Positions 7,229 to 31,919 are shown, counted from the stretch's first letter. The stretch: DNA of 63,696 bases from an uncultured archaeon (GCA_964524375.1 CAZGES010000001.1:1-63696); one strand, 5' to 3'. The notes: generated by a model from the letters alone, not told the origin. A program made the numbers and translations.

Positions 7229-7987
7229 ATGTTAGAATCTATTATTCGTGCCCCTGCAGTAATGCTGAAGCACGCCTCGGCGTATGGTCTCCTCCTCATT
7301 TTGACGGGAGTGCACGGCGTCCTCTACTTATTCAATGAGGACGTGCTGGCCATTTTTACGGATGGGAGTGTGGGGGGGTTGTTGTCCACGAATGATGTCG
7401 CGCTGCAAGCCCGCGCATTAGGATTATTACTAGTGAGCATGGTCGTCATGATTTATTCACTCGCAACAGTTTCACGCGCCATGACTAAAACGCGCGCGGG
7501 AAACAACTCCCTATTTTTTTCAGCGCTGGCATTCTCCATTGTATTACTCTCCGCGGGAGCGGGATGGTACATGGTTGCAAGTGCGGTTAATGCATTTGCA
7601 TCCTGGGGTGGGGTGGCGGGACTGCTCTCGCTCATCTTCATGGCGGTCATCGGACTCATCACCGCGTTGTGCGTAGTGAAGTTTGCATTCACCCCAACGT
7701 ATGTGGGGAGAGGGCTCCTGCCCAAAGATGCGTTAGTGCAATCGTGGAACGCGACGCGCGGAAAATTATTCTCCACTATTATTCTGCTTCTCGCCGTGAT
7801 GGTGGTCGCAGGAATTGTACAAGGGGCCGTCGAAATTATTTTTAGTTTTGTGACGGATGAAACCATTCTTACCGTAATTTATTTTATGGGCGCCGCGCTC
7901 GGATTATTTTATTCCGGAACCGTGTTCGCACTCGCCGCGCCTGAAGCAAACACAATTTCACCGCGGCGCGTGCATGGGAAAAAATGA
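7229..7987 (+). CDS. polytopic membrane protein, unknown function
   Basis: About 6 hydrophobic helices. ATG at 7229 (the track uses GTG at 7217). Confidence 0.55.
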   Translation: MLESIIRAPAVMLKHASAYGLLLILTGVHGVLYLFNEDVLAIFTDGSVGGLLSTNDVALQARALGLLLVSMVVMIYSLATVSRAMTKTRAGNNSLFFSALAFSIVLLSAGAGWYMVASAVNAFASWGGVAGLLSLIFMAVIGLITALCVVKFAFTPTYVGRGLLPKDALVQSWNATRGKLFSTIILLLAVMVVAGIVQGAVEIIFSFVTDETILTVIYFMGAALGLFYSGTVFALAAPEANTISPRRVHGKK

Positions 7988-8004
7988 AAAATGAGGAATG
8001 AAAC

Positions 8005-11025: not shown

Positions 11026-11736
11026 TTACGCCTTGAGGCGGTTCAAATTATTCATATCGTCCTCTAAACCCGTGTCGCGTTTTCCGGATCTGTTTTTTCC
11101 AAGGAGGTGGCCTTCCATTTCTGCCTTGTGCGTGCGCCACTCTTTTTCTAAATCATCCTCGTCCAATTCATTTGCATGCGTATTCGTGTTTTTTTTCGTT
11201 GAGCGTGCGGGAGCCGTGTTCTTTTTTCCAACTGAGGTTTTTTCATCGCTCGATTTTTTCCACAACTCGCGAAAACGACCATTGTAAAACGTGTGGCGGT
11301 TGAAGAGCATCCATGCGACTAAAACAAGGAATTGGACGCTGTACGCGATTCCCTCATACGGTTGTTCGCCGGGAGCGAGGCAGCACGTGGAGAAAATAGC
11401 CTTAGCATCCCCAAAATGAAAACGCAATTGCACGGGGTGGTTGATGAGGAGGACGTGAACAAACTCGTGCGCCAACCCCGAAATGAGCAATCCTGCGAGC
11501 GAGACGTTGATGAAGGTGCGGTATGAAAACTTTGAATTTTCTCCGGAAAGAATTTTAGAAAGGAGAAAACCCATCGTGACTAAGAGGAAGAGGAAAATGA
11601 GGTAAATGAAGGGAGACTGGGACACTTCCCCCGAGGATGAAGGGGTGTCATTGACGGTCGCAACGTAAAGGCCTAACGTAATGGCAACCACCATAGCGGC
11701 AACTAGAATGGAAAAGGCTATGGAGCGGTGGTTCAT
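11026..11736 (-). CDS. membrane protein with HExxH zinc-metalloprotease motif
   Basis: Four or more TM helices, GLAHEFVHVLL motif in a helix, charged C-terminal tail. Confidence 0.55.
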   Translation of the reverse strand: MNHRSIAFSILVAAMVVAITLGLYVATVNDTPSSSGEVSQSPFIYLIFLFLLVTMGFLLSKILSGENSKFSYRTFINVSLAGLLISGLAHEFVHVLLINHPVQLRFHFGDAKAIFSTCCLAPGEQPYEGIAYSVQFLVLVAWMLFNRHTFYNGRFRELWKKSSDEKTSVGKKNTAPARSTKKNTNTHANELDEDDLEKEWRTHKAEMEGHLLGKNRSGKRDTGLEDDMNNLNRLKA

Positions 11737-11805: not shown

Positions 11806-13287
11806 ATGGCGGTTTTGCGTGGTAGGCGTATGGGCGGAAGTATGCAGGAAATGAACACCCTCGTCACGCAAGAGGAGCGAGGAGAGGCCGTGAAAGGGCT
11901 TTTTGATCGCATCAAAGGGTGCGCCGAGCGTTTGCGTGTGCTGGACAAAGCAGTCGTGGTCACCCACCATGACTGTGACGGACTGACGAGCGGAAGCATT
12001 GTGGTGCGTGCCCTCCAGCGGGAAGAAATTGACGTGAGCACGGTTACATTGAAACAATTGTATTCGGAAGACGTTCAACGGCTGAAAAACATGCACGCGT
12101 CCATCATTTTCACAGATTTTGGTTCGAGTTACATTCCTCTGTTGAAAACGGAGTTGGAGAAAGAATTTTTTGTGATTGACCACCATCAGCGCGGCGCAGG
12201 AGAACACGAAGGGCACATGAATCCCATGGAATTTGGATTAGATGGGGGAACGGAAATTTCGAGCGCGGGAATCGCCTATTATTTAGGAAAAGAAATTTCG
12301 TCGAAAAATCAAGACATGGCGGCGATTGGTGTTGTGGGTGCGGTAGGGGACATGCAGGACTCTCGCTCGAATGGGCTCATTGGACTCAACAAACAGATGG
12401 TTCAAGAGGGAGTGGATGCGGGCGTGTTAAATGTGAAAACGGATTTGCGATTGTATGGGCGAATTTCGCGGCCGCTGGTGCAATATCTTACATTCTCCAC
12501 TTCTCCTATATTGCCCGGGCTCACGGCAAACAAGGAGCAGTGCATCAAATTTTTGGAAAACTTGGACATCCCTTTGCAGGATGAAAGCGGAAAGTGGCGC
12601 GCGTACGAAGATTTGAATGCAAACGAGAAAAAAATTCTTTCCACGGCCATATTAATGCACTTGCACGAGCACAACACTCCCGAATGGAAATTAAATGAAT
12701 TGATTGGGGATGTGTACACGCTCACGAAAGAAAATCCCTATTCTCCGCTGCGCGATGCGAAGGAATTCTCCACCGTATTAAACGCGTGCGGCCGCAACGG
12801 ACAATCCACCATCGGTTTTCACGTGTGTTTGGGCGACCGAGAAGACCAATATGCGCGCGCGATGGGTTTGCTGCAAGAACACCGCCGAAATTTGGCGGAA
12901 GGAATTCAACTGATGCAAAACGAAGGATTGAAAGAATACAAACACTTTTATTTTTTTGACGCGGAAAGCAAAATCAAGGATTCGATTGTTGGAATTGTTG
13001 CGGGAATGTTATACGGAAGCGGGGGCGTGAACACCGACAAACCCATTGTGGCGTTTTCGAGACATGAGGATGGGAGTATTAAAGTGAGTGCGCGCGCGAC
13101 GAGTGAACTCGTGAGAAACGGAGTGAATTTAGGGTTAGCGCTGCGTGAAACGTGCCAATCATTAGGAGGAACGGCCGAGGGAGGAGGGCATCGCATCGCG
13201 GCGGGATGCCGGTTGGAACTCGACCAAGCTAGTGCATTCCTTCCCTTATTTGACGAGAAAATAGGAATCCAGATGCACGCGCGCTAG
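11806..13287 (+). CDS. DHH/DHHA1 phosphoesterase, archaeal RecJ/GAN(Cdc45)-like nuclease
   Basis: DHH motifs VVVTHHDCDGLTSG, FTDFG, FFVIDHHQ and the DHHA1 motif GGGHRIAAG. Start uncertain (ATG at 11806 or 11830). Confidence 0.8.
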   Translation: MAVLRGRRMGGSMQEMNTLVTQEERGEAVKGLFDRIKGCAERLRVLDKAVVVTHHDCDGLTSGSIVVRALQREEIDVSTVTLKQLYSEDVQRLKNMHASIIFTDFGSSYIPLLKTELEKEFFVIDHHQRGAGEHEGHMNPMEFGLDGGTEISSAGIAYYLGKEISSKNQDMAAIGVVGAVGDMQDSRSNGLIGLNKQMVQEGVDAGVLNVKTDLRLYGRISRPLVQYLTFSTSPILPGLTANKEQCIKFLENLDIPLQDESGKWRAYEDLNANEKKILSTAILMHLHEHNTPEWKLNELIGDVYTLTKENPYSPLRDAKEFSTVLNACGRNGQSTIGFHVCLGDREDQYARAMGLLQEHRRNLAEGIQLMQNEGLKEYKHFYFFDAESKIKDSIVGIVAGMLYGSGGVNTDKPIVAFSRHEDGSIKVSARATSELVRNGVNLGLALRETCQSLGGTAEGGGHRIAAGCRLELDQASAFLPLFDEKIGIQMHAR

Positions 13288-13907: not shown

Positions 13908-14810
13908 TTAAACCGTGTGCGTGGCAAACGCCACCCAGCCGCGCGCGCGGAAAGGCTCGATGATCTGTGAACTTATTTTAGGCGAATCGCAAACGCAAAC
14001 GATAGTGGGTCCGGAGCCGGCGAGCATGACTTGTTTGACGTTTGGCATTTGTTTCAACCCTTCAACGAGTGCAAACGGAACGGAATACTCGGGCATGGTT
14101 AGCGTGTCAAAAACGTTTCCCATTTCTGAAACGACTTTGTCCACATTTTTTTCACGAATCGCGGCGCGCATTCGCATAATAGATGGGTGATTTTCCACGT
14201 TGTTCACGTCAAAGTTTGAATAAATCCATTTTGTTTTTTGTTCAGGAACTTTAACAGGTGGAACAATGAAAGCCAATTCTAAGCGCGGGCATTTTTCAAT
14301 GGGTTCGATTATTTCCCCTCGGCCGCGGGCAATAGCAGTCCCCCCGCGGATGAAAAACGCATCATCGGAACCAATTTTTCCGGCTAATTCCACAAGCGTG
14401 TCTGAAGAAAGATTGAGGTTCCACAATTTATTCAATCCTTTCAACGCGGAAGCGGCGTTGGAGCTTCCCCCGCCTAAACCACCCGCGGAGGGAATTTTTT
14501 TCTCGATGTGAATTTTCACTCCTTGAATGGGTTTGTTTTGTTTTTGCAATTCTTCCTGCATGAGCTTGGCGGCTTTGTGACAACTATTTTTTTCATTTAA
14601 GGGCACGTTCACGTCGGTGCACGACAAAATAATTTCGGTGCTCGTTGAAAGTGTTTCAAGCGTAAGAATATCATGGAGCTCAAGTTCCTGCATGACGATT
14701 TCAATCTCATGATATCCATCTTCGCGCTTGCGGAGGATATCTAAAACAAGGTTTACTTTCGCGGGAGAAGAAATGGTAATGGGCGTGGGCATGGGAATTC
14801 CCAACTGCAT
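13908..14810 (-). CDS. ispE: 4-diphosphocytidyl-2-C-methyl-D-erythritol kinase
   Basis: PAKVNLVLDILRKREDGYHEIEIVMQ and the GHMP motif IPSAGGLGGGSSNAAS. The ATG overlaps the ispH stop (TAATG). Confidence 0.85.
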   Translation of the reverse strand: MQLGIPMPTPITISSPAKVNLVLDILRKREDGYHEIEIVMQELELHDILTLETLSTSTEIILSCTDVNVPLNEKNSCHKAAKLMQEELQKQNKPIQGVKIHIEKKIPSAGGLGGGSSNAASALKGLNKLWNLNLSSDTLVELAGKIGSDDAFFIRGGTAIARGRGEIIEPIEKCPRLELAFIVPPVKVPEQKTKWIYSNFDVNNVENHPSIMRMRAAIREKNVDKVVSEMGNVFDTLTMPEYSVPFALVEGLKQMPNVKQVMLAGSGPTIVCVCDSPKISSQIIEPFRARGWVAFATHTV

Positions 14811-15823
14811 TAGTGAACCACGTACGCGGGGCGGATGATTTCACTTTCGGCTTTGTTATGGTCTTTGTCGTATTTTTGAATCCACGAAATCACGTCTTCA
14901 ATATCCTCATCGGGCGTGCTCGCGCCGGCGCCGATTCCCACGTGAGCGATGTTCGTAAACCATTCAGGTTTCAATTCCGCGGCGGATTCAATCCAGTGGG
15001 TCGTGGTTTGCTGTGCGCACAATTCAGCTTGGCGTTTGGTGTTTCCGCTGTTTCGTCCGCCGATGACAAGCATTAAAGGAACTTGCGTGGAGAGGGTGAC
15101 TGCGCCGGGCTGCATTTCGTGCATGGCGTTGCAAATGGTGTTATACACGCGCACTTCGCGGGCTTTACCCATGACGGCCATTGCCACCGCTTGAACATTG
15201 TCATTTGATTGCGTTGTCTGCGAAACGATTCCGATTTTGGTGAGTACGGGATAGTGCAATTTTTCCACAATTTCCGCATCGGATTTGGCTTTCATGAGTT
15301 CATCATTCGTATAATATTGCGTTTTGCGCGGAAAGAGTTTGCTCGCCTCTTCAGCGTTTTCTACTACAATGGCATTGGGAGCGTAACTCTTGATGCCATC
15401 CACTTCCGGGTGGCCGTGCTCTCCGACAATAATGACCTGGTATTTTTCATCGAATAATACTTTCGCGGTCTTGTGCACCATCGTGACAAAGGGACACGTG
15501 GTATCGACAATGTTCAAATTTTTTTCTTTGGCTTTGGCGATGGCTTGCACGGTTACCCCGTGTGCGCGCATGAGAACGGTTGAATTATCGGGGATTTCTT
15601 CCATCTTGTTCAAATGGGAAAAACGTGAAATCTTGGACGCGGCGTAGGGATTGTCTTCCACGAGCTTTCCGCCGTGTTCGATGATTTTTTGTACGACGCG
15701 TTGGTTGTGCACGGGCATCCCATACAAGTAGGCGTCTCCCTTGTCGAGGGTCTCGTGAGCAATTTTGACACTGCGTTTGACCCCAAAACAAAAACCAGCG
15801 GCGCGGGCGATTTCAATCTTCAT
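14810..15823 (-). CDS. ispH: 4-hydroxy-3-methylbut-2-enyl diphosphate reductase
   Basis: Three cluster cysteines in conserved contexts: AAGFCFGVKR, DTTCPFVTMVH, VYNTICNAMHE. Confidence 0.85.
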   Translation of the reverse strand: MKIEIARAAGFCFGVKRSVKIAHETLDKGDAYLYGMPVHNQRVVQKIIEHGGKLVEDNPYAASKISRFSHLNKMEEIPDNSTVLMRAHGVTVQAIAKAKEKNLNIVDTTCPFVTMVHKTAKVLFDEKYQVIIVGEHGHPEVDGIKSYAPNAIVVENAEEASKLFPRKTQYYTNDELMKAKSDAEIVEKLHYPVLTKIGIVSQTTQSNDNVQAVAMAVMGKAREVRVYNTICNAMHEMQPGAVTLSTQVPLMLVIGGRNSGNTKRQAELCAQQTTTHWIESAAELKPEWFTNIAHVGIGAGASTPDEDIEDVISWIQKYDKDHNKAESEIIRPAYVVH

Positions 15824-15884
15824 TACTTCAAAATGGCCGGTTTTGCATAAAAAGCCATCGTTAAATTCGTACGATTGTCAAACT

Positions 15885-15897
15885 ATTTTACGTCAAT
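15885..15897. promoter_or_regulatory. ATTTTACGTCAAT motif in the ispH/dxr divergent region
   Basis: Identical 13-mer in reverse complement at 21403-21415 upstream of ispG. The core TACGTCAA also occurs at 19449-19456 and 24894-24901. Confidence 0.45.
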
Positions 15898-15966
15898 TGG
15901 GGAAACCTTGGTGGTTGCGGTCGAAATGAGGCTTTAATGGGGTGTTTGATGGGTGCGGGGGCGCGG

Positions 15967-15974
15967 ATATATAA
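15967..15974 (+). promoter_or_regulatory. TATA box (ATATATAA) for dxr
   Basis: Centred ~27 nt upstream of the ATG at 15998. Confidence 0.55.
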
Positions 15975-15997
15975 CTCCTATTTGCGATGGTGTGCGT

Positions 15998-17182
15998 ATG
16001 GAGCACCAGCGAATTGGATTGTTAGGCAGCACGGGAAGCATTGGGACGCAAACCCTGAATGTGGTAGACCAGCACCCGGGAAAATTTTCCATTAAGGTTC
16101 TTACCGCGAATGGGAGCGTAGAGACCATTTCCGCGCAGATGGAAAAGTATCATCCGGAGGCCGTTTGTTTAGTGGACGAGTCTAAAGCGGACGAATTGAA
16201 GAAAAAAACCAAGGGAAACGTGCACGTTCTTTCAGGATATGCTGGTTTGAACGAGGCCGCGCGCTGGGAGAGTGTGGACACGGTCGTTCAAGCATTAGTG
16301 GGAAACGTGGGAATGAAACCCACGATTGAAGCCATTCACGCGGGGAAAAAAATTGCGCTGGCGAATAAAGAAACACTCGTGAGCGCGGGCGCAGTAGTCA
16401 TGCCGCTCGTGAAAAAACATCATATTGATTTGACGCCCATTGACTCGGAACACTCGGCTATTTTTCAATGCTTGAAAGGAGAAAACGTGAAAGAAGTCAC
16501 ACGGCTCATCATCACGTGTTCAGGCGGCCCCTTCCGTGGAAAAAAAATTAATCAATTGCAGGGAGTGACTAAAGAACAGGCCCTTAACCACCCCACCTGG
16601 AAAATGGGCGGGAAAATTACGATTGACTCTGCAACGTTAATGAACAAAGGGTTTGAAGTCAATGAGGCGATGTGGCTGTATGATATTCCTGCGGAAAAAA
16701 TTGACGTGGTGGTGCACCCTCAGAGTATTATTCACTCCATGGTCGAGTTTGTGGACCGGAGCATTATGGCGCAGGTCGGACATCATGACATGCGCATTCC
16801 CATTCTGTATGCGTTAACGCACCCTGAACGCTTGTCGCTCGATTTACCGGCGTTTGATTTTGTTAAACTCAACCAAATGACATTTGAACAGCCGGATGTG
16901 GAAACGTTTGCGTGCCTGCAAATGGGATTAGACGCGGCGCGGGAAAAAGGAACCGTGTGCTGCGTGTTGAACGCGGCGAATGACACGAGTGTTGAGTCCT
17001 TTTTGCGCGGCGAAATAGAATTTTTGGACATTCAACGTACGATTCATGAGGTGGTGTCGAAGCATCACAACATGAAGCACCCCACACTCGAAGACGTGCT
17101 TGCCGCGGATGCATGGGCGAGGAAAGAAACCGAAAAAGCGCTGCACGCGAAAAAAGAAAATGTTCGCGTGAAGGCCGTGTGA
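15998..17182 (+). CDS. dxr: 1-deoxy-D-xylulose 5-phosphate reductoisomerase
   Basis: IGLLGSTGSIGTQTLNVV NADPH motif, LANKETLV, DSEHSAIFQC, NHPTWKMG. ATG at 15998 preferred on TATA spacing. Confidence 0.9.
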   Translation: MEHQRIGLLGSTGSIGTQTLNVVDQHPGKFSIKVLTANGSVETISAQMEKYHPEAVCLVDESKADELKKKTKGNVHVLSGYAGLNEAARWESVDTVVQALVGNVGMKPTIEAIHAGKKIALANKETLVSAGAVVMPLVKKHHIDLTPIDSEHSAIFQCLKGENVKEVTRLIITCSGGPFRGKKINQLQGVTKEQALNHPTWKMGGKITIDSATLMNKGFEVNEAMWLYDIPAEKIDVVVHPQSIIHSMVEFVDRSIMAQVGHHDMRIPILYALTHPERLSLDLPAFDFVKLNQMTFEQPDVETFACLQMGLDAAREKGTVCCVLNAANDTSVESFLRGEIEFLDIQRTIHEVVSKHHNMKHPTLEDVLAADAWARKETEKALHAKKENVRVKAV

Positions 17183-17194
17183 GGGAATTGCACC

Positions 17195-17488
17195 ATGCCT
17201 CCCATCAAAAAAGGAACGTTCAAGAAATCGACTCACAAACCATTTATTTTAGTGAAACCCCGACGAAAAAAAATTCCATTACCGAATAGGCGCACATTGA
17301 CGCGGGATGAATACCACGCTAATGCGTGGGTGAATGAAAATTTTCGTGCCGTTAAACTTCCCAATGGGAGAAATCATTGGATGGCGGTTAAGGAATACAA
17401 AAAGTTTGCCGCCCGCGCACGCGCATTAGGCATTACAGTGGGAGAACTTCTTCTTCGACACCATCGCGAAGCGGGGTTTGAGAAATGA
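17195..17488 (+). CDS. basic 97-aa hypothetical protein embedded in the MEP operon
   Basis: Starts 12 nt after the dxr stop, and its stop overlaps the ispD start (ATGA). K/R-rich N-terminus and a helical C-terminus ARARALGITVGELLLRHH. Confidence 0.5.
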   Translation: MPPIKKGTFKKSTHKPFILVKPRRKKIPLPNRRTLTRDEYHANAWVNENFRAVKLPNGRNHWMAVKEYKKFAARARALGITVGELLLRHHREAGFEK

Positions 17489-18210
17489 GCGTGCACGTCA
17501 TTCTCACCGGAGGCGGTTCCGGTTCGCGGATGAAAAACCCCGTGAATAAATCATTCATTTTGTTGAGCGGGAAGCCCATTATCGCGTATTCGATGCAGTT
17601 GTTTCAGCACCACCCGGAGACTTCAACGATAACCATTACGATGCATCCTGACTGGGTGGAGGAAACGACGCAGTGGATGAATCAGTTGGGAATAACCAAA
17701 GTCAAACAGATTGTTGAAGGAGGGAAAGAGCGGCAGGATTCGGTGCGCAATGGTTTGCGTGCAATTGCCTCGCTGAATCCGAAAGCGGATGATATTATTT
17801 TGGTGCACAACGCGGCAAACCCGCTTTTAACAAATGAAACCGTGTCCGAATGCATCCGCGCGGCGAAACAAAATCACGCGAGTGTGGCAGGATACCGCAT
17901 CAAGGATACGATTAAGCGCGTGAGTGATGATGGGAAAATTATTGAAACACTCTCACGCAGCGAATTGTGGGGAATGCAAACCCCGCAGTGTATTCAGCAC
18001 GAACTTTTTATCCGCGCGCATGTGAAAGCGGAGAAAGAAAACTTTTTGGGCACAGATGATGTGCAGCTCGTTGAACGCATGGGTGTGCGTGCGGTGGTGG
18101 TGGATTGCGGGTATGAAAATTTCAAAATAACGACGCCGGAAGACATTAATATGGCCGAGCGGATATTGGAAAAGCGGCGTGAATATGAAAAAAGCGGCGT
18201 GAGAGCATGA
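17485..18210 (+). CDS. ispD: 2-C-methyl-D-erythritol 4-phosphate cytidylyltransferase
   Basis: N-terminal VILTGGGSGSRM, VHNAANP, and TIKRV..ETLSRSELWGMQTPQ are typical of IspD. Confidence 0.85.
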   Translation: MSVHVILTGGGSGSRMKNPVNKSFILLSGKPIIAYSMQLFQHHPETSTITITMHPDWVEETTQWMNQLGITKVKQIVEGGKERQDSVRNGLRAIASLNPKADDIILVHNAANPLLTNETVSECIRAAKQNHASVAGYRIKDTIKRVSDDGKIIETLSRSELWGMQTPQCIQHELFIRAHVKAEKENFLGTDDVQLVERMGVRAVVVDCGYENFKITTPEDINMAERILEKRREYEKSGVRA

Positions 18211-18869
18211 TGCGAAAAAAATCCCCGCACGAAATGCAAATAGTTCACGAAAAAAGCGAATATATTGATTGGGTGAATTTGAAAACGGGAAAAGTATTAG
18301 GAAGAGTGACAAAAAAGTTTGCGCACGACCATGGATTGCCCCACCGCGCCGCGCACTTGTTTGTTTTTGATGCTAAAAATAATTTGGTTTTGCAAAAAAG
18401 AGGAAAGTGGATGGTGCTGCAGCCGGGGCGCTGGGACACGTCCGCAGGCGGACATGTGAGCGCGGGCGAATCTGTTGAGCGTGCGGCCGTGCGCGAGGCG
18501 TGGGAGGAGATTCACGCGCGGGGAATGGTTCACCGCTTGGGAAGCGTAACTATTCATGACGTGCGGAAAACGTATGATAATACGGAAGGGGTTACTTTCT
18601 TCTGGATGAAATCAACCACTCCCCTGCGCGCGCAAAAAAGCGAAGTGGAGAAGCTCATGCACATTCCCCTCGAAAAAGTGGATACGTTTTTGGAAAAAAA
18701 TGCGTGCACGCCGTGGATGAAAGCCGCGTGGAAAAAATATTCGCCCAAAATTTTGCGCGCCGGTGAGTTGATGGTAAAAAAAAGTGCGCGCGCTAAATCT
18801 GCGCGAGCGAAGCTCGTTCGTGCGAAACCTGTGCGGGCGAAACCTGCGCGTGTTAAACGGAGGAAATGA
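18207..18869 (+). CDS. Nudix-fold protein aligned to type-1 IPP isomerase but lacking its catalytic Cys, with a basic repeat tail
   Basis: LPHRAAHLFVF..LQKRG...PGRWDTSAGGHVSAGESVERAAVREAWEE aligns with E. coli Idi LHLAFSSWLF..TRRA..PGVWTNSVCGHPQLGES (recalled from memory). Gly replaces the catalytic Cys at nt 18447-18449. Confidence 0.65.
   Translation: MMRKKSPHEMQIVHEKSEYIDWVNLKTGKVLGRVTKKFAHDHGLPHRAAHLFVFDAKNNLVLQKRGKWMVLQPGRWDTSAGGHVSAGESVERAAVREAWEEIHARGMVHRLGSVTIHDVRKTYDNTEGVTFFWMKSTTPLRAQKSEVEKLMHIPLEKVDTFLEKNACTPWMKAAWKKYSPKILRAGELMVKKSARAKSARAKLVRAKPVRAKPARVKRRK
18780..18854 (+). repeat. five tandem 15-nt coding repeats (KSARA KSARA KLVRA KPVRA KPARV)
   Basis: Direct reading of 18780-18854. 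In frame at the C-terminus of the Nudix protein. Confidence 0.8.
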
Positions 18870-19363
18870 TGTTTCGAATTGGATTAGGCACGGACTCGCA
18901 CGCGTTTGAAAAAGTGGCGGCTGGGCGAAAAGTGGTGTTGGGAGGGGTTGTCATCCCTCATCCCGTTGGATTAGTAGGCGACAGCGACGCGGACGTGGTA
19001 TTGCATTCGTTGTTCAATGCTATGACTTCAGCGGCGGGAGATAGGGGGATCGGTTTCTATTTCAAGAAAGCAGACATGGAAAAAGGGTATGCGGACTCGG
19101 CAAATATGATTCAAAAGGGGTTGGAAATTATTTCTGACGCGGGATTTGAACTCGTGAATGTGAGTGTAGCGCTTGAATTGAAAGGGCCTAAAATCGAGCC
19201 GAATGTTCCTGCGATGAAAAAGCGAATGGCTGACATTTTGAACGTGGAGGAAAGTGCGATTGGAATCTCCGCCACGTCGGGGGATGGGATGTCCCCCTAC
19301 GCCAAAGGAGAAGGGATTTACTGCCAGACCATCGTTTTGCTGCAAAAAAGTGAATCCCTCTGA
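18866..19363 (+). CDS. ispF: 2-C-methyl-D-erythritol 2,4-cyclodiphosphate synthase
   Basis: RIGLGTDSHAF and GDSDADVVLHSL metal-binding motifs. Start overlaps the upstream stop (ATGA). Confidence 0.85.
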   Translation: MMFRIGLGTDSHAFEKVAAGRKVVLGGVVIPHPVGLVGDSDADVVLHSLFNAMTSAAGDRGIGFYFKKADMEKGYADSANMIQKGLEIISDAGFELVNVSVALELKGPKIEPNVPAMKKRMADILNVEESAIGISATSGDGMSPYAKGEGIYCQTIVLLQKSESL

Positions 19364-19446
19364 AGGAATGGGGCGGTTTACTCAGGGGAATGGAAGCCAG
19401 ACATACTTTTATACAAGAAAGGCATAAACATAACAAAAACGGGTGA

Positions 19447-19488
19447 ATTACGTCAATCCCCCTATTTTAGATTGACAACCAACGTAAT
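19447..19488. promoter_or_regulatory. inverted ATTACGT half-sites / two-segment stem-loop just upstream of the dxs TATA-like box
   Basis: ATTACGT-CAATC ... GATTG-(7 nt)-ACGTAAT, immediately followed by CTTTTTAAC (19490-19498), ~48 nt before the dxs ATG. Confidence 0.4.
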
Positions 19489-19542
19489 CTTTTTAACGGG
19501 CTGTTGGCATGATGTAGTCTCCTAGACGGGGGAATCCTAGCT

Positions 19543-21393
19543 ATGTACTCTGAAACAACCTCGAACACAAAAACAAATGGAAATGGTAAAATGGGCAAGC
19601 TTTCCTTGAAAGATATTAACTCCCCCGCGGACCTGAAACAGGTTCCCTTGGAGGAATTGCCTGCGATTGCGCAAGAGATTAGAGAACTCCTTATTTCTAC
19701 GTGCTCCGCGAACGGCGGACACATTGGCGCTAATTTAGGGGTCGTGGAACTCACGATGGCGCTGCATTACGTGTTTAACACGCCCAAAGACAAGGTTATT
19801 TTTGACATTTCTCACCAGTCCTACGTTCACAAAATTCTCACCGGACGACGCGAACAATTCCCTACGTTATGCAAATATCCGGGCGGACTCTCACGATTCA
19901 TTGTTCGCGGCGAAAGCGAATATGATTTGTTTTCATCCGGACACGCCTCTACTGGATTAAGCTCAGCCATGGGTGTGGCGGAAGCGGCCAAACAAAAGAA
20001 AGCCGACTACCAAACCGTTTGCTTGGTGGGAGACGGTGCGCTCACGGGCGGAATGGCCTACGAAGCGTTGAACAACATGGGATACAACCAAACGGACATT
20101 ACGATTGTGTTGAACGACAACAAGATGAGTATTTCAAATAATGTGGGAGCGATGTATGAGTATCTTCGAAGACTCTCGGATGTTTCCTCGGATGACCGCG
20201 GACGACGCGGAATTGGAACCATTTTTGAAAAACTCGGATTCAAGTATTACGGTCCCATTGATGGACACAATTTTGAAGAATTGACGCACCATTTGCAGGA
20301 AATGAAACACATCAAGGGACCGAAGATTTTGCACGTGCTCACCACCAAAGGAAGCGGTGTGGAATACATGCAGGATGACAAAACTACGTGGCACGAGCAC
20401 GCGGCGTTTGACATTCCTTCAGGAATTGCCAAAGCTAAATTGGACAAAACCAAGCCCGTGAATGCGAGCATTGAAAGCGTAGCCGTGTCTGCACTGATGA
20501 AGCTTGCGGAGAAAGATAAGAAAATTATTGGATTAACCGCTGCGATGGCCACCGGAACTGGAATGGTCAAGTTTGGCGAAAAATTTCCCGACCGATTCTA
20601 TGATGTGGGTATCGCGGAAGAACACGCTATTACTTTCTCCGGCGGACTTGCGGCAGAGGGAATGAAACCCTTCGCGTGTATTTACTCGCCGTTTTTGCAG
20701 CGCGCGTTTGACCAGATTTTCCACGACGTGGCCAGCATGAAATTACCTGTGCGAATGCTCTTGCCCAAAGCCTCCATTACCGGAGACGGTTGGACGCAGG
20801 GCGGAATTCTCGACATGAGTTATTTGCGCGTCATTCCGAATGTGGTGGTTGCCGCGCCGATGAATGAAAACGAATTATTTCACATGGTCAAAATGGCTGC
20901 GGACTATGACAAAGGACCCATTGCCGTTCGATTCCCCAAAGGAACGGGTTCGGGCATGACCATTGATTCGGAATTCAAAGACATCCCCATTGGAAAAGCA
21001 GAAGTCTTGAAAGACGGAAAAGACATTGCCATTTTCGCCATTGGGTGGATGGTCTCCGACGCGTTAAAAGTGGCCGCGGAATTAGAAAAGCAAGGAATCT
21101 CCGCAGCAGTCATCAACGCGCGCTTCGTCAAACCATTGGATGAAGAGACGTTGTTGAAGTACGCTCAACGCACGAATAAAATTATCACGATGGAAGAAAA
21201 CACGCTGATTGGCGGGTTTGGTTCAGCGGTGTTGGAATCGCTGGAACGACACGGTCAACGCAACGTGAACGTGCACCGCGTGGGTGCCGCGGACGGATAC
21301 ATCCCCTTCGACAAGCCGGAGAACATCAAAAAGTCCTTCGGAATGGCGGTGGATGACATCGTGAACGCGGCCAAGAAAATGGTCGGAAAATAA
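19543..21393 (+). CDS. dxs: 1-deoxy-D-xylulose-5-phosphate synthase
   Basis: GGHIGANLGVVELTMALHYVF, the TPP motif GDGALTGGMAYEALNN, and the full-length three-domain size (616 aa). Confidence 0.9.
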   Translation: MYSETTSNTKTNGNGKMGKLSLKDINSPADLKQVPLEELPAIAQEIRELLISTCSANGGHIGANLGVVELTMALHYVFNTPKDKVIFDISHQSYVHKILTGRREQFPTLCKYPGGLSRFIVRGESEYDLFSSGHASTGLSSAMGVAEAAKQKKADYQTVCLVGDGALTGGMAYEALNNMGYNQTDITIVLNDNKMSISNNVGAMYEYLRRLSDVSSDDRGRRGIGTIFEKLGFKYYGPIDGHNFEELTHHLQEMKHIKGPKILHVLTTKGSGVEYMQDDKTTWHEHAAFDIPSGIAKAKLDKTKPVNASIESVAVSALMKLAEKDKKIIGLTAAMATGTGMVKFGEKFPDRFYDVGIAEEHAITFSGGLAAEGMKPFACIYSPFLQRAFDQIFHDVASMKLPVRMLLPKASITGDGWTQGGILDMSYLRVIPNVVVAAPMNENELFHMVKMAADYDKGPIAVRFPKGTGSGMTIDSEFKDIPIGKAEVLKDGKDIAIFAIGWMVSDALKVAAELEKQGISAAVINARFVKPLDEETLLKYAQRTNKIITMEENTLIGGFGSAVLESLERHGQRNVNVHRVGAADGYIPFDKPENIKKSFGMAVDDIVNAAKKMVGK

Positions 21394-21402
21394 GGTTAGA
21401 GT

Positions 21403-21415
21403 ATTGACGTAAAAT
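21403..21415. promoter_or_regulatory. ATTGACGTAAAAT motif upstream of ispG
   Basis: Exact reverse complement of 15885-15897. Confidence 0.45.
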
Positions 21416-21420
21416 ACGCG

Positions 21421-21442
21421 AGGGAAAATGAAAATTTTCCCT
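21421..21442 (+). terminator. hairpin AGGGAAAAT-GAAA-ATTTTCCCT between dxs and ispG
   Basis: Perfect 9-bp stem 28 nt after the dxs stop. A role as terminator or attenuator is inferred only. Confidence 0.35.
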
Positions 21443-21492
21443 ATCCTTAAATTTCAGTCGGATGTAGAATGATTGTTGGAGAATGATAGTGC

Positions 21493-22761
21493 ATGCAAAA
21501 ACTTGAAACCCTCAATGGATTTGTGAAACGAAAAAGCGTTGAAGTTCGCGTGGGAAAAGTTGGCGTGGGGGGACACAACCCGGTGCGTGTTCAAAGCATG
21601 ACGAACACCGACACGGCGGACGTGAAGGGAACGGTTAAGCAAATCAAAGAACTCGCGGATGCGGGAAGTGAACTCGTACGATTCACGGTGGAGAAAGACG
21701 CCATGGCCGATGCGGTGCCGGCGATTCGAAAACAATTGCATGATGAGGGGTATGAAGACACGGCGTTGATTGGAGACTTTCACTATAACGGGCATTTGCT
21801 TTTGACGAAGTATCCTAAACTTGCGGAATCATTGGACAAATATCGCATCAACCCCGGAAATGTGGGCTTTGGAGAAAAACACGATGCTAATTTTGATTTG
21901 TTTGTAAAAACGGCTGTGGATTATGGCAAGCCCGTGCGTATTGGTGTGAACGGGGGAAGTCTCGACCAGCAGTTGCTCAAAAAACTCATTGATGATGATA
22001 ACAAGCTCCCCGCGAATGAACAGCTTGGCGCGAATCAAATCTTTTTAGAAGCGATGATTCAATCCGCTGTTTTGTCCACGCAGCGCGCGCTGGATTTAGG
22101 CATGCGAAAAGACCAAATTATTGTTTCCACTAAAATGAGCGGCGTGCAGGAAATGGTGTACTGTTATTCGAAGCTCGCGAAATTAATGGATCAACCCCTG
22201 CATTTGGGGTTAACTGAAGCGGGAATGGGGGATAAAGGAATTGTCGCCTCCACCGCCGCATTATCATTGCTTTTGAATCAAGGAATTGGCGACACGATTC
22301 GCGTGAGTTTGACACCGGAGCCCGGTTCATCGCGTACGCGTGAAGTGTATTTGTGCCAGCAGATTTTACAAAGCTTGGGACACCGATTCTTCTTGCCGCA
22401 AGTTACCGCGTGCCCGGGCTGCGGACGCACGACGAGTGACACATTCCAGCATTTGGCGAAGGAAGTGACGGAATATCTTGCTAAACAAATGCCCGTGTGG
22501 AAAAGTGAAGGGTATGCGGGTGTGGAGAACATGCACGTTGCGGTCATGGGATGCATTGTCAACGGTCCCGGCGAAGCGAAGGGTGCGAACATTGGCATCT
22601 CCCTTCCGGGAAGCGGAGAGAATCCCGCGGCGCCCGTGTTTGAGGATGGAAAGCTCGTGAAAACACTGCAAGGGCCCACGATGCGGGATGATTTTAAGAA
22701 AATGGTCCAAGCGTACGTGGAAAAGAAATACGGTAAAAAAGCCGTGCACGCTGTAGCGTAG
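21493..22761 (+). CDS. ispG: 4-hydroxy-3-methylbut-2-en-1-yl diphosphate synthase
   Basis: [28 protein letters not shown] and GCIVNGPGE cluster motifs. Confidence 0.9.
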
Positions 22762-22762: not shown

Positions 22763-23146
22763 ATGCCCCCCTCCCGTGAATGGACGATTACTCCCGCGCT
22801 CGTACGGAATATCTGCGCCGCAGCACGCTCCACGTATCCGGATGAGTTTATTTCCATGCTCGGCGTCGCGGAAAAGGGTTCGCGCACCCTCTCCGAACTC
22901 GTCGTTGTGCCCTCAGAGTTTGGACGCACCCATTCTTCTGTGAGAGTGGACTTGATCCCATTCGACCCGCTGATTGTGGGGAGCATTCACTCCCACCCCG
23001 ACGAGGGGGCGATTCCTTCCTCTGCGGACCGGAATTTCTTCTCGCGCATGGGTAGCATTCACATTATCGCGGGGTACCCGTATTCGTTTAACACGATGCG
23101 CGCGTATTCCTCGAGTGGAAAACGAGTTCCTCTAAATCTGGCGTGA
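22763..23146 (+). CDS. stand-alone JAMM/MPN+ metalloprotease-domain protein
   Basis: Canonical JAMM motif HSHPDEGAIPSSAD (H-x-H-x7-S-x2-D). The ATG is 1 nt after the ispG stop. Confidence 0.75.
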   Translation: MPPSREWTITPALVRNICAAARSTYPDEFISMLGVAEKGSRTLSELVVVPSEFGRTHSSVRVDLIPFDPLIVGSIHSHPDEGAIPSSADRNFFSRMGSIHIIAGYPYSFNTMRAYSSSGKRVPLNLA

Positions 23147-24364: not shown

Positions 24365-24826
24365 CTACTGGCACTGTCCAACGACCGGCTGGATTCCATT
24401 GAATTTGAGTCCAGTCAAGTTGGCTGTGTTGTACGTGTATCCTAATGCTTTGCTGAATGTTTGTCCTGTGGCAACACCGCACACAATGGATGAATTTATC
24501 ACATTTGCAGTGGATCCTGCGCCGACGTTGACATCGGTGATGTCAATCGCAGAGCCGCCCCAATTAATGTCGGTTACTCGAATCGTTCCCGCGGTCAAGT
24601 TTTTGACAACGAGCGTTCCGGTAGAGGGTGTGACTTGCCATTCAATGACTGCAACAGGATTTGTTCCCGTCCAGTATGTTCGACTCGTGCTTTCGGAAAC
24701 TCCCGCACCTAATGAGGGGATTCCGCCCAACACGCCGACGACGACCAGCGCGATGACAATCACGATGGCTAAAATAATCAAATATTCCGTGGTCCCTTGA
24801 CCGCGATTTTTCTTCGTATGCATCAT
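24365..24826 (-). CDS. type IV pilin, Flp-like class III signal peptide (candidate major pilin)
   Basis: MMHTKKNRG|QGTTEYLIILAIVIVIALVVVGVL fits G/XXXXEY. Small (153 aa), Thr/Gly/Asn-rich, two Cys near the C-terminus. Own promoter, SD-like GGAGTGAGGAG and terminator. Confidence 0.8.
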   Translation of the reverse strand: MMHTKKNRGQGTTEYLIILAIVIVIALVVVGVLGGIPSLGAGVSESTSRTYWTGTNPVAVIEWQVTPSTGTLVVKNLTAGTIRVTDINWGGSAIDITDVNVGAGSTANVINSSIVCGVATGQTFSKALGYTYNTANLTGLKFNGIQPVVGQCQ

Positions 24827-24882
24827 ATTTTTCTCCTCACTCCCACGAAGGGGTTGTTAGATAGCAGAGCAAATGCTACGAT

Positions 24883-24901
24883 GAATATAAATCTACGTCA
24901 A
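24883..24901 (-). promoter_or_regulatory. pilin promoter: TTGACGTA motif abutting TATA box ATTTATATTC
   Basis: Minus strand reads TTGACGTAG-ATTTATATTC about 60 nt upstream of the pilin ATG. The motif overlaps the stop of the upstream platform gene. Confidence 0.5.
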
Positions 24902-25932
24902 CCCGTTGCGAGGAGACTGCCCAAAACTTGCCGGGCGAGACCAAATGCAATCATGGAAACTATAAACATAATCGGGGTGTAGCGCAATCCCAGAAACGGT
25001 TTCCCTTCCCCAATAACCCCCATGAAAATTCCCGCGAGGATAGCATTTCCTAAAAGCAAAATGTACGCGACGCTTTCCAAGAAAACAGGAGTAATGGAAA
25101 GTTTTCCCCCGAGGAAACCCACCGTGCTGGACGAAGAGCCGGCGGTGAGGAAAGAACTCTGACCCTGTATGCGTGTGATGAGGGTGACAAATTCCACCGA
25201 CACGGCCATGAGTAAGGGGGTGGCCACGACCATGACGAATGCGACAAAAATCACGTAGGTTTTCACACTGCTTTCTAATTCTTTTTTCAAATCTTGCGTG
25301 CGGCGCAAATCCGCGGAGGAGCTTTCCAAAATCTGCGCAATTCTTCCTCCGCTGCGAACCGCTTGCAAAAAGAAACGCACGGTTTCGCTTAAACTTTTTG
25401 ATTTAATTCGATTGGAAATGCCGCTCAGCACGTTTCCAAAGGATTCGGTTCCTAATGCACGCGTGGTTACGGCGCGAATTTCGTCTGAAAGCGCGCCAAA
25501 TTCCGGGCGCGTGGAACTTTTGAATGCGGAAAAACTAGTCATTCCCGCGCGGATGTTTCCCGCGACGAGAAGCAAAAAGTCCGGCAAAACTTCTTCCACT
25601 TTCTTGCGGCGGTTCTCGATGCGGTAATACAGGATGAGGACTTGGAGAATGAGGCCGGTGATGAACCCCACGCTTGTACCTAAAATTCCGGCTGTTTCGC
25701 GCGTGAAAGAAATTCCCGTGCCGAGGGGAGTTACCCACGCGTTGAGCGATTCGGACGTGAAATAAAAAAACACTGCCCCCGCAATTGCGGCGAGAATGGA
25801 AAGGATGAGTGTTTTGGAGAGCCATGTCGCTCCATCGTCTAATGAGCCGGATTCGCGCAAGTATGCGTTGGCATTCTCCCTCATCCGTACGGGGAGAGCG
25901 CGTGAGAGGCGATAGAAAAGGGGATTAGGCAT
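24898..25932 (-). CDS. type IV filament platform protein, TadC-like (single T2SSF-type domain)
   Basis: The track ORF 24898-26247 overlaps the upstream gene. The ATG at 25932 (MPNPLFYRL) is 2 nt after the upstream stop. Polytopic with a helical cytoplasmic domain (FGALSDEIRAVTTRALGTESFGNVLSGISNRIKS). Confidence 0.75.
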   Translation of the reverse strand: MPNPLFYRLSRALPVRMRENANAYLRESGSLDDGATWLSKTLILSILAAIAGAVFFYFTSESLNAWVTPLGTGISFTRETAGILGTSVGFITGLILQVLILYYRIENRRKKVEEVLPDFLLLVAGNIRAGMTSFSAFKSSTRPEFGALSDEIRAVTTRALGTESFGNVLSGISNRIKSKSLSETVRFFLQAVRSGGRIAQILESSSADLRRTQDLKKELESSVKTYVIFVAFVMVVATPLLMAVSVEFVTLITRIQGQSSFLTAGSSSSTVGFLGGKLSITPVFLESVAYILLLGNAILAGIFMGVIGEGKPFLGLRYTPIMFIVSMIAFGLARQVLGSLLATG

Positions 25933-25934
25933 AC

Positions 25935-26816
25935 TTAGTACCCCTTCGGCGTGCGCGAGCCGATGAAACCAATGAGGACAATTTGAACCGCAAACGCCGC
26001 TCCAATGGTGAGGAGAATCGTATCCTGCGAAATGGACGTGCCCCCGATGGAGGAGAGAATGATCATGAACGTAATTCCAATGGTTGGGAGGGCAGCGGCC
26101 ATGAGCAAATACATGAGAATCCACATGTTTAATTCTGCCGCGTAATTCTTGATGGCGCGCGACTGAAACTCGGTGAGGGTTTCCATAATCGCAGTAAGTG
26201 CCACGCTGATGGGTGCGCCCGTGCGAATCGTAGTTACAAGCTGCCAAATGGTTTTGCGCAAAAACTCGGATTGCGTGCGCAACGCCAACCGTTCAAGTGC
26301 CGCTCCTTCGTTTACTCCCGCGTTAATTTCCTGAATTACTTTTTCAAATTCTTCACTAATGACACCGTAATTGCTTTGCGCGATATTGGACATGGCATCA
26401 AACAAACTCACGCCGGAATTGACTTGGACTTGCATGCTTCGCAGCGCGAACATTAAACCTTGGTCGATTCCCGTGGCATTTTGTTGCGCGAGGATGCGCG
26501 GGTAGTAAATGTGAAGGAGAAACGCACTCAACCCTAGTCCTAACCCGGTAACAAAACCAAAACGCAGGCCTTGAATGATGTCACCGCTCGTGACAAAGGA
26601 GAGTGCGCCGATGAGGAGGAAGGAGAGGATGGAATACAGAAACGCCGAGAGAAGGGCCCCCGCCACATAGGATGGAGCGTCGGTGGAAATGTGGGCGAGT
26701 TTGAGAGTGTTATTCAACGTGGGGAAAAAGCGCGAAACATGGGTGGCAGCCCCCGTGAAACGTGAGGGGAGGTTGTTGATTTGGTCCAGGGTCAGGAGCA
26801 TGAATCGCACGCGCAT
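25935..26816 (-). CDS. type IV filament platform protein, TadB-like (single T2SSF-type domain)
   Basis: Polytopic. Cytoplasmic helical domain QVQVNSGVSLFDAMSNIAQSNYGVISEEFEKVIQEINAGVNEGAALERLA resembles T2SSF/TadB. Confidence 0.75.
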   Translation of the reverse strand: MRVRFMLLTLDQINNLPSRFTGAATHVSRFFPTLNNTLKLAHISTDAPSYVAGALLSAFLYSILSFLLIGALSFVTSGDIIQGLRFGFVTGLGLGLSAFLLHIYYPRILAQQNATGIDQGLMFALRSMQVQVNSGVSLFDAMSNIAQSNYGVISEEFEKVIQEINAGVNEGAALERLALRTQSEFLRKTIWQLVTTIRTGAPISVALTAIMETLTEFQSRAIKNYAAELNMWILMYLLMAAALPTIGITFMIILSSIGGTSISQDTILLTIGAAFAVQIVLIGFIGSRTPKGY

Positions 26817-26827
26817 GAAGAATCATC

Positions 26828-28648: not shown

Positions 28649-28669
28649 GCTCGAAACAGCGAAAGGGGC

Positions 28670-28677
28670 TTTATTAT
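28670..28677 (-). promoter_or_regulatory. TATA box (ATAATAAA) for the ATPase gene
   Basis: Centred ~25 nt upstream of the ATG at 28648. Confidence 0.5.
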
Positions 28678-28749
28678 CGTATTCCCTGCCAATTCTACCA
28701 GGGGCAATAACCGGGGTTAAAAACCAATTTGAAGAGGATTTTTGTATAC

Positions 28750-28901: not shown

Positions 28902-28929
28902 GACTGAATGCTATTTTTCCATTCGACCA

Positions 28930-31891: not shown

Positions 31892-31919
31892 GCGCCGTGA
31901 ATGGACGCGTTTACCTATT

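Follow-up and report, generated by a model that had tools for sequence, protein, structure and literature searches.

That DPANN archaea may make their isoprenoid precursors by the methylerythritol phosphate (MEP) or deoxyxylulose phosphate (DOXP) pathway was noted in 2017, when they were described as using "either mevalonate or MEP/DOXP" (PMC5383146). Hoshino and Gaucher (2018) analysed the DPANN genes and reported that Dxr shows an affinity with the Candidate Phyla Radiation (CPR) as well as with the Fibrobacteres-Chlorobi-Bacteroidetes (FCB) group (PMC6107057), and these genes are also dealt with by Castelle and Banfield (2018), as that work is cited in PMC8204110 and PMC8421398. Among Woesearchaeota the pathway is widespread and its genes co-located in a clade of 52 genomes (PMC8204110), with a confinement to subgroups F and J and an ispDF fusion (PMC8421398), and in 2025 it was reported from three orders of Micrarchaeota (Norongarragalinales, Zaosheniarchaeales and Micrarchaeales), where it coexists with a complete mevalonate (MVA) pathway (PMC12892359). 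Here we describe a seven-enzyme MEP gene cluster on a contig of an uncultured archaeon (GCA_964524375.1 CAZGES010000001.1:1-63696); "the window" below is this whole stretch of 63,696 nucleotides, in whose coordinates its features are given. We consider it about 80% probable that the cluster encodes a native, functional MEP pathway of an archaeon of the Iainarchaeota (Diapherotrites, DPANN), made up of ancient bacterial genes in a mosaic.

The cluster extends a pattern already known in DPANN from Woesearchaeales and Micrarchaeota, and the reports cited above justify the caution of the initial annotation of the window, which allowed that MEP in DPANN might not be new. That annotation also considered that the cluster might prove widespread and already described in its own lineage. 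It does recur in at least 14 species-level Iainarchaeota assemblies, but we found no explicit published report of MEP in this phylum, although mention in some key earlier papers is possible; in NCBI and UniRef these proteins already bear annotations as enzymes of the MEP pathway from Candidatus Iainarchaeum or Diapherotrites.

The Woesearchaeales clusters resemble that of the window in being complete bacterial-type pathways, co-located in small-genome DPANN archaea, flanked by archaeal informational genes and read as horizontal acquisitions. In a Woesearchaeal example (L017; the loci compared here carry such numbers) the order is dxr-ispDF(fusion)-x-x-ispE-ispH-polyprenyl synthase on one strand, without dxs and ispG nearby, whereas in the window a Nudix gene stands between an unfused ispD and ispF, the layout is divergent, and dxs and ispG lie inside the cluster. 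The window also has no adjacent trans-prenyltransferase or UbiA, the enzymes are 33-49% identical, and the phylum is a different one. Since the ispDF fusion and adjacent prenyltransferase of the Woesearchaeal type (PMC8421398, PMC8204110) are both absent from the cluster of the window, we rejected an assignment to that type. Micrarchaeota are the sister of Iainarchaeota within DPANN Cluster 1. Their locus L015 likewise clusters all seven genes, with a Nudix gene in front, and its Dxr (57% identical) and IspG (62%) are among the closest outgroup sequences, but its order is unidirectional (nudix-dxs-ispE-dxr-ispG-ispD-ispF-ispH) and its other five enzymes are 29-42% identical. Canonical bacterial pathways (E. 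coli, Thermus, Aquifex) share the same seven families, catalytic residues and Fe-S ligands; there, however, the genes are dispersed (for example dxr-rseP, as in L022), whereas those of the window are gathered in one cluster, with archaeal TATA promoters and starts that are mostly leaderless, and the IspH of 337 residues with lineage-specific inserts stands against one of about 280 in bacteria.

A complete set of MEP enzymes on an archaeal contig

In the MEP pathway, Dxs joins pyruvate and glyceraldehyde-3-phosphate (GAP) to form 1-deoxy-D-xylulose 5-phosphate (DXP); Dxr, IspD, IspE and IspF convert DXP to methylerythritol cyclodiphosphate (MEcPP); and reduction of MEcPP by IspG and IspH, both of them Fe-S enzymes, gives isopentenyl diphosphate (IPP) plus dimethylallyl diphosphate (DMAPP), which feed prenyltransferases, here for example the UppS encoded on the contig. 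Nine closely packed open reading frames (ORFs) occupy positions 13908-22761, and seven of them encode MEP enzymes with matching Pfam architectures (Table 1). Enzymes were assigned by profile score against curated TIGRFAM/NCBIfam equivalog cut-offs, together with Pfam architecture, and all seven score above their cut-offs. The claim of the initial annotation, that all seven enzymes with intact motifs lie in this interval, is borne out by coordinates, cut-offs and motif scans, as is its placement of uppS at 59025; UppS is the only consumer of IPP downstream of the pathway that is encoded within the window.

The catalytic, cofactor and Fe-S residues are intact in all seven enzymes, with non-canonical substitutions outside the Zn ligands in IspF, which is of the type called class B below. 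A motif scan recovers the NADPH and metal motifs of Dxr (GSTGSIG, DSEH, HPTWKMG and NKGFE), a protein that also matches 29 solved DXR sequences, and the thiamine diphosphate (ThDP) motifs of Dxs (GGHIG and GDG...NDN). IspD has the P-loop GSGSRM and KITTPED, and is monofunctional, with no ispF fusion; IspE has KVNL and the GHMP motif II, GGLGGGSSNA; and IspF has its Zn ligands in DSH (D10, H12) and a second His, H47. In IspG, a two-domain bacterial-type protein of ~410-420 residues with ~60% identity to Thermus GcpE (4S38), the Fe-S ligands are conserved in CPGCGR and GCIVNGPGE (CPGC...C...GPGE in alignment to a solved structure), and in IspH alignment to solved structures and the motif scan show Cys12, Cys110 and Cys231 along with HPE, SQTT, NSGN and ASTP. 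The likely start of dxr is ATG 15998 rather than the upstream GTG 15953, because this codon is where the family profile starts, and it has a TATA box 22-31 nt upstream.

Table 1. Positions of the MEP cluster and of other features in the window, with profile scores and the cut-offs that apply to them.
Feature	Position	Strand	Assignment and score
ispE, CDP-ME kinase (step 4)	13908-14810	-	TIGR00154, 239.5 bits (cut-off 138.7)
ispH, HMBPP reductase (step 7, [4Fe-4S])	14810-15823	-	TIGR00216, 233.9 bits (cut-off 187.85)
Divergent promoter spacer ispH/dxr	15824-15997		Two TATA-like boxes
dxr, DXP reductoisomerase (step 2, committed step)	15998-17182	+	NF009114, 509.8 bits (cut-off 461)
orf97, small basic ORF	17195-17488	+	No family match
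ispD, MEP cytidylyltransferase (step 3)	17485-18210	+	TIGR00453, 218.3 bits (cut-off 181.3)
Nudix gene, YfcD-like hydrolase	18207-18869	+	Pfam NUDIX, 54.7 bits
ispF, MEcPP synthase (step 5)	18866-19363	+	TIGR00151, 150 bits (cut-off 116.45)
dxs, DXP synthase (step 1, ThDP-dependent)	19543-21393	+	TIGR00204, 688 bits (cut-off 465.95)
ispG, HMBPP synthase (step 6, [4Fe-4S])	21493-22761	+	NF001540, 435 bits (cut-off 345)
JAB/MPN-domain gene	22763-23146	+	Prok-JAB, 46 bits
uppS, cis-prenyltransferase	59025-59723	-	TIGR00055, 178.5 bits (cut-off 109.55)
Archaeal RecJ/GAN-family nuclease	11806-13287	+	NF053576, 515.5 bits (cut-off 360)
Archaeal-type RNase P RNA	58430-58684	-	Rfam RF00373, 109.3 bits (gathering score 84), E=1.2e-29
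Type IV pilus-like locus	24365-38987	-	
tRNA-Arg(TCT)	41044-41121	+	
Putative phage metallopeptidase (135 aa)	49038-49445	-	PF18894, 69.9 bits
Second T2SSE/T2SSF pair	60637-63527	+	
CDP-ME, cytidine diphospho-methylerythritol; HMBPP, hydroxymethylbutenyl diphosphate.

The contig that carries these genes is archaeal. Archaea-specific informational markers sit to the left and to the right of the cluster; RNase P RNA and RecJ extend the set on which the initial annotation had based its archaeal assignment, namely eL42/L44e, archaeal leucyl-tRNA synthetase (LeuRS, 767 bits), archaeal alanyl-tRNA synthetase (AlaRS, 909 bits) and class III signal peptides. RecJ ends 620 bp from ispE; it is conserved in relatives, anchors the cluster on its left-hand side and serves as a control for chimerism at that junction. 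On the other side, a pilin with a class III signal peptide and a locus for a type IV pilus ATPase and platform begin 1.6 kb to the right of ispG. A chimera of assembly or binning, by which a bacterial MEP fragment became joined to an archaeal contig, would accord with the canonically bacterial nature of MEP genes and with the derivation of the window from a metagenome assembly, but it is vanishingly unlikely. We reject it because both borders of the cluster are reproduced in independent assemblies: the left junction RecJ-sp173-ispE and the right junction ispG-JAB-orf135-pilin recur across several projects and in a closed genome. Composition and promoters point the same way. G+C content is flat along the window (0.46-0.52); the tetranucleotide profile of the cluster correlates at r = 0.964 with that of the rest of the window, within the range of the controls (0.951 +/- 0.025), its codon usage with that of archaeal housekeeping genes at r = 0.94, and G+C at third codon positions (GC3) is 0.558 against 0.552, so that on these statistics the cluster is indistinguishable from the remaining contig. 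Archaeal TATA boxes precede ispH and dxr, and bacterial homologues reach 64% identity at most. Neither the tetranucleotide check nor the synteny of relatives reveals the chimeric border that the initial annotation had raised as a danger.

The expression signals are likewise those of an archaeon. In the 35 genes whose upstream spacer is 45 nt or longer, A+T content by position from the start codon peaks sharply at -28 to -22 (0.89 at -28) and no general Shine-Dalgarno region is seen, the pattern expected of archaeal TATA promoters and mostly leaderless mRNAs. In the 174-nt spacer between ispH and dxr, the TATA-like TTTTTATGC faces ispH (minus strand; ~15845-15856 on the plus strand) and the TATA-like GATATATAAC faces dxr (~15967-15976). 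Each lies ~22-31 nt from its ATG, which would imply leaderless or near-leaderless mRNAs, and both are recognisable in relatives with an equally short spacer. A separate spacer of 179 nt precedes dxs, in which the TATA-like CTTTTTAAC stands ~50 nt upstream of the gene, and ispG has one of 99 nt with CCTTAAATTT and GGAG. The TATA-like elements of these two spacers lie further upstream. These findings sustain the earlier description of the cluster as natively promoted, with TATA/leaderless promoters including one in front of dxr, as far as sequence can speak to it. We rejected a bacterial operon with retained sigma-70 promoters: sigma-70-like sites (19, against 11.7 +/- 3.3 in shuffled sequence) are all intragenic, with none in the ispH/dxr spacer, and the intergenic spacers hold TATA boxes instead.

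The arrangement of the genes suggests a division into about four archaeal TATA-driven units. Leftward, ispE would be the second gene of an ispH-ispE unit, its start overlapping the ispH stop by 1 nt. Rightward, the overlapping or abutting genes dxr-orf97-ispD-nudix-ispF suggest one transcription unit, and dxs and ispG would form two more. The JAB/MPN gene, which begins 1 nt past the ispG stop and among the relatives keeps this place only in L001 (82%), may be co-transcribed with ispG.

Probable descent of the cluster in Iainarchaeota

A scan of one genome per GTDB species returned 14 loci whose Dxr is 73-84% identical to that of the window, in records titled Candidatus Iainarchaeum, Diapherotrites or uncultured archaeon, one of them a closed genome of 1,048,949 bp (CP064981.1). 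The host probably belongs to Iainarchaeota, a placement based on collinear loci, on protein identities of 70-95%, and on the records titled Candidatus Iainarchaeum or Diapherotrites. The ispH and dxr products of L014 (JAGVNS010000056.1), titled Thaumarchaeota archaeon, are 86% and 73% identical to those of the window, and this record is probably a mislabelled Iainarchaeota bin.

Where contigs are long enough, the 14 loci share the order SMC-TM protein-RecJ-secreted protein-ispE-ispH / dxr-ispD-nudix-ispF-dxs-ispG, and L001 shares the right-hand JAB, orf135 and pilin genes in addition. The RecJ-x-ispE junction is present in L001, L003, L006, L007, L010, L011, L012, L013, L016 and L021. The deep-branching L016 (Dxr 57%, IspH 71%) has RecJ-x-ispE-x-ispH / dxr-x-ispD-x-x-ispF-dxs, the same backbone with interspersed genes, and L021 has RecJ...ispE / dxr-ispD-x-ispF-...-ispG. 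The RecJ of L016 (3772-6726) carries an intein with a LAGLIDADG endonuclease domain and is 984 residues long, against 493 in the window. The Iainarchaeal sequences group in tight clades, with identities of 70-84% for Dxr, 81-88% for IspG and 71-93% for IspH, followed by a large gap to the outgroups; IspE is 52-78% identical in the relatives.

The core genes are unambiguously under purifying selection, at a level comparable to that of housekeeping genes. Nei-Gojobori ratios of nonsynonymous to synonymous divergence (dN/dS), calculated for six enzymes in comparison with L001, the closest relative, are 0.05 for IspH, 0.05 for IspG, 0.06 for IspD, 0.08 for Dxr, 0.11 for IspE and 0.15 for Dxs, and 0.09 and 0.08 for the archaeal neighbours RecJ and SMC, all of them approximate values with dS saturated (>1).

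We suggest a mosaic origin because the nearest outgroups of Dxr, IspG and IspH differ. Those of Dxr are a deep Diapherotrites metagenome-assembled genome (MAG; 57%), Micrarchaeota (Norongarragalinales, 57%), Patescibacteria (54%), Bacteroidota (53-55%) and Woesearchaeota (49%). The nearest named hits of IspG are bacteria at 60-64% (Burkholderiales, Allochromatium, Armatimonadota, Eremiobacterota and Thermus) together with Micrarchaeota at 62%, and the outgroups of IspH, at 47% or less, are archaeal proteins of 303 residues (43-47%), followed by Nanoarchaeota and assorted bacteria at ~40%.

The initial annotation saw in the cluster a wholesale transfer from bacteria. That a ready seven-gene operon was recently received from one bacterial donor is very unlikely, despite the contiguity of the seven genes. 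The Patescibacteria and Bacteroidota among the nearest non-archaeal hits of Dxr would agree with such a transfer and with the CPR/FCB affinity given in PMC6107057, as would a five-gene cluster, ispH / ispF-ispE-dxr-ispD, in a locus titled Patescibacteria group bacterium (L020, JAHJAL010000018.1); but the bacteria nearest to IspG are Proteobacteria, Armatimonadota and Thermus rather than FCB or CPR, IspH is at most ~42% identical to that of any named bacterium, and in the Bacteroidota relative L022 dxr stands in its ordinary dispersed dxr-rseP context, without the cluster. Amelioration is complete and the promoters are native, and the backbone is common to deep Iainarchaeota, L016 included, at 43-71% identity, which places the acquisition before that radiation. 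Comparisons of outgroups uphold the bacterial ancestry that had been proposed for the pathway but not its arrival in a single block. L020 also bears on how far such clustering extends: grouping of the MEP genes appears to be characteristic of DPANN, and perhaps of CPR too.

An older single event has to be weighed as well, in which the pathway was acquired once in the ancestor of DPANN Cluster 1, or spread between DPANN lineages as a "MEP supercluster", and was later rearranged. The Dxr and IspG of Micrarchaeota L015 are among the closest non-Iainarchaeal homologues, the low-GC contigs L018 and L019 have the identical compact order ispE-ispH<>dxr-ispD-ispF-dxs-ispG, and the clusters of L015, L019 and L021, too, come with a Nudix gene. 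The Micrarchaeota order, however, is different and unidirectional, IspE, IspH, IspD and Dxs of Micrarchaeota are only 29-41% identical to those of the window, and the MEP gain in Micrarchaeota orders has been placed after their diversification (PMC12892359). L018 and L019 themselves are discordant gene by gene, with IspH 28% and IspG 64% identical to the window in the former and 45% and 37% in the latter; the per-gene identities to L015 are discordant as well. An Rfam scan of L015, L016, L018 and L019 returned no domain-diagnostic RNAs, and the archaeal nature of L018 and L019 is indicated by neighbouring genes alone (the geranylgeranyl reductase (GGR) family and DTD2). We regard a single DPANN acquisition as unlikely.

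In the mosaic history that we prefer, the MEP genes would ultimately be bacterial, with an import that was neither recent nor a single block. The recJ-anchored layout ispE-ispH<>dxr-ispD-(x)-ispF-dxs(-ispG) would have been in place already in the deep ancestor of Iainarchaeota and would then have been passed on mainly vertically, under strong purifying selection and with full adaptation to host composition and promoters. Later remodelling would have proceeded by replacement of single genes in situ (ispF here) and by insertion, of orf97 and the Nudix gene here, and of type 2 isopentenyl diphosphate isomerase (IDI), geranylgeranyl reductase, triosephosphate isomerase (TIM), glucose-6-phosphate dehydrogenase (G6PD) and RuBisCO-like genes in relatives. 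The identities of the genes, their motifs, the archaeal host, synteny, amelioration and selective constraint are shown by the present data; enzymatic activity, the transcription units and the succession of evolutionary events are deduced from them.

Putatively replaced and inserted genes, and neighbouring genes

IspH carries the clearest marks of this history. All Iainarchaeal IspH proteins are exactly 337 residues long; they have a 16-residue insert, DNPYAASKISRFSHLN, at about residues 56-71, that is seen nowhere else, an insert of ~30 residues at ~165-194 that is shared only with the 303-residue archaeal group, and a conserved C-terminal tail, ...RPAYVVH. These shared derived inserts and the common length indicate long residence in archaea. 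An AlphaFold model (predicted local distance difference test score, pLDDT, 87.9) has a canonical core, with the inserts as peripheral elements of lower confidence.

IspF departs from its neighbours. Pairwise matrices for RecJ, IspE, IspH, IspD and IspG place the window beside L001 and L012 at 78-95% identity, whereas its IspF is only 39-51% identical to that of every relative. Two classes occupy the same position in otherwise collinear clusters: class A in L001, L004, L006, L008, L011, L013 and the deep L016 (54-96% identical internally), and the minority class B in the window, L007, L009 and one metagenomic representative (~40% to class A), at a distance from each other that equals the distance to Micrarchaeota or Woesearchaeota. 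With class A present in the deep branch, class B seems to have arisen by displacement in situ by a xenologue. A search of 1.8 billion representatives, in which the best match is 52% identical and cluster names were mostly missing, identified no donor. Dxs is discordant too, at 82% identity to L011/L013 and 74% to L001. At the nucleotide level, homology to L001 is continuous at 75-79% except over 17142-17490 (orf97) and 18158-19433 (nudix and ispF).

The Nudix gene had been called IDI-like in the initial annotation. We rejected it as a type 1 IDI: it scores 51.4 bits against a cut-off of 127 (NF002995) and 42.1 against 105.8 (TIGR02150), has Gly at the position of the catalytic Cys67 of the E. 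coli enzyme, and yielded no TNSxCxHP motif. The protein keeps the canonical Nudix hydrolase box, GHVSAGESVERAAVREAWEE, and its best match in the PDB is 2FKB, E. coli YfcD, with weaker similarity to IDI-1. It shares the Nudix fold with both, but it is below the cut-offs of both families (51.4 bits against 152 for the YfcD profile) and differs from them in a Lys/Arg-rich tandem-like repeat tail, KSARAKSARAKLVRAKPVRAKPARVKRRK, at its C-terminus (18780-18866), outside the Nudix fold, which could be a nucleic-acid or membrane-binding appendage. The gene holds the same position in 11 relatives but evolves fast, at only 30-65% identity and an apparent dN/dS of 0.2-0.5. We read it as a hydrolase because IspH already gives both IPP and DMAPP, and because in relatives with the Nudix gene a true type 2 IDI is encoded close to the cluster as well (352 bits in L006 and 390 bits in L016, against 281.3). 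A role in hydrolysing prenyl or pathway diphosphates, as a control on their pools, is speculative.

The second ORF without a place in the pathway, orf97, encodes a very basic protein of 97 residues, begins 12 nt after the dxr stop and overlaps ispD by 4 nt. It has no Pfam, NCBIfam or PHROG match and no homologue in 21 related loci or in metagenome contigs, and is probably a recent insertion and no pathway member. In L013, the closed relative, this slot is occupied by an unrelated small ORF (11224-11484), so that the dxr-ispD junction may be an insertion hotspot.

Clusters of relatives hold further genes, none of which (type 2 IDI, GGR, UbiE-like, TIM, G6PD or YjbQ/RuBisCO-like) is found in the cluster of the window. 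A GGR-family reductase lies between ispH and dxr in L011 (8569-9819) and L013 (within 7526-9925), and just downstream of the cluster in L018 (12630-13847), with scores of 188, 191 and 178 bits against the TIGR02032 cut-off of 158.8. In L013 it is followed by a UbiE-like methyltransferase, and together these genes link the MEP cluster to the synthesis of saturated isoprenoids (lipid or quinone). Bacterial-type TIM and type 2 IDI stand beside the cluster in L016 (17775-18464 and 19560-20621) and L006 (18152-18943 and 19808-20860), with TIM next to dxs or ispG, and G6PD between dxr and ispD in L009 (2083-3447); TIM could plausibly provide the pathway with GAP, and G6PD with NADPH. A pair of YjbQ (UPF0047) and RuBisCO-large-like genes precedes ispF inside the cluster in L006 (12467-14194), L007 (13032-14754) and L016 (13599-15344); the RuBisCO-large-like gene is below the form III cut-off, and its best match is an OiaX-like decarboxylase.

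Elsewhere in the window, the large type IV pilus-like locus encodes a pilin with a class III signal peptide, a T2SSE ATPase, an 852-residue beta-propeller protein and several proteins of 750-800 residues with prepilin-like N-termini, and includes two T2SSF platform genes; another T2SSE/T2SSF pair is found at the right end of the window. The putative phage metallopeptidase is encoded between LeuRS and aspartate carbamoyltransferase, with faint PHROG matches. Mechanically called ORFs at 58521-59006, over the RNase P RNA, and at 40928-41143, over the tRNA-Arg(TCT), are almost certainly spurious. GC skew is positive in nearly all 2-kb windows regardless of gene orientation, with a cumulative skew that climbs monotonically from 0 to ~5, and the only negative stretch is at ~53-56 kb.

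Mevalonate and the role of the pathway

Some points weigh against the reading of the cluster as a functional pathway of mosaic descent. Beside the saturation of dS mentioned above, the trees are neighbour-joining trees without support values, and donors were judged from best-hit identities and from source-given names for about one quarter of the hits; the differing nearest outgroups could partly reflect unequal rates, not separate acquisitions. No ferredoxin or flavodoxin that might serve as reductant for IspG and IspH was found within the window. Class B IspF bears several substitutions where conservation is usual (His34 to Asp and Glu135 to Asp, judged by eye against the E. coli protein), and its full activity is less certain, though it passes the equivalog cut-off. 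Finally, MVA genes have been reported in other Iainarchaeota MAGs (PMC10936187).

This last report, with PMC6107057, is also an argument for a MEP pathway that is auxiliary to a mevalonate pathway, making a special product (dolichol or UppS carriers, quinones) or DXP for cofactors. Micrarchaeota orders hold both routes (PMC12892359), and the GGR-family reductase and UbiE-like methyltransferase beside the cluster in relatives make a tailoring of quinones or lipids possible. Pfam and NCBIfam scans of nearly all ORFs in the window, which is ~6% of a genome of ~1 Mb, found no MVA or ether-lipid gene other than UppS; the absence of an MVA gene from these 63.7 kb speaks against an auxiliary role, as does a constraint on the core genes as strong as that on housekeeping genes, and a supply of DXP alone would not require ispD to ispH. 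We consider the auxiliary role a real but minority possibility. It is doubtful, too, that the recJ-anchored divergent seven-gene "MEP supercluster" is an ancestral trait that defines a large clade of Iainarchaeota and has replaced mevalonate as its only source of IPP, with the layout acting as a scaffold for in-place swaps of xenologues and insertions of supporting genes. The swaps would be those of IspF classes A and B and of the differing IspH and IspG types in L018 and L019, and the insertions those of type 2 IDI, geranylgeranyl reductase, TIM and G6PD. If this were true, the supercluster would be a third, independently organised case of an archaeal lineage that depends on the "bacterial" route to isoprenoids, as well as a clear example from nature of in-situ gene displacement in a conserved operon architecture.

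Textbooks count the division between the MVA and MEP pathways among the biochemical differences that separate Archaea from Bacteria, and it matters to debates on early membranes and the "lipid divide". The gain from the Iainarchaeota cluster is incremental unless loss of mevalonate in this clade is shown. Each further archaeal lineage that stably runs MEP weakens the pathway as a domain-diagnostic trait. For comparative enzymology, the locus offers a compact MEP cluster driven by archaeal promoters, with diverged enzymes that include the 337-residue IspH and class B IspF, and for the biology of the group it supports the view that DPANN Cluster 1 lineages have been rebuilding their anabolism from bacterial genes.

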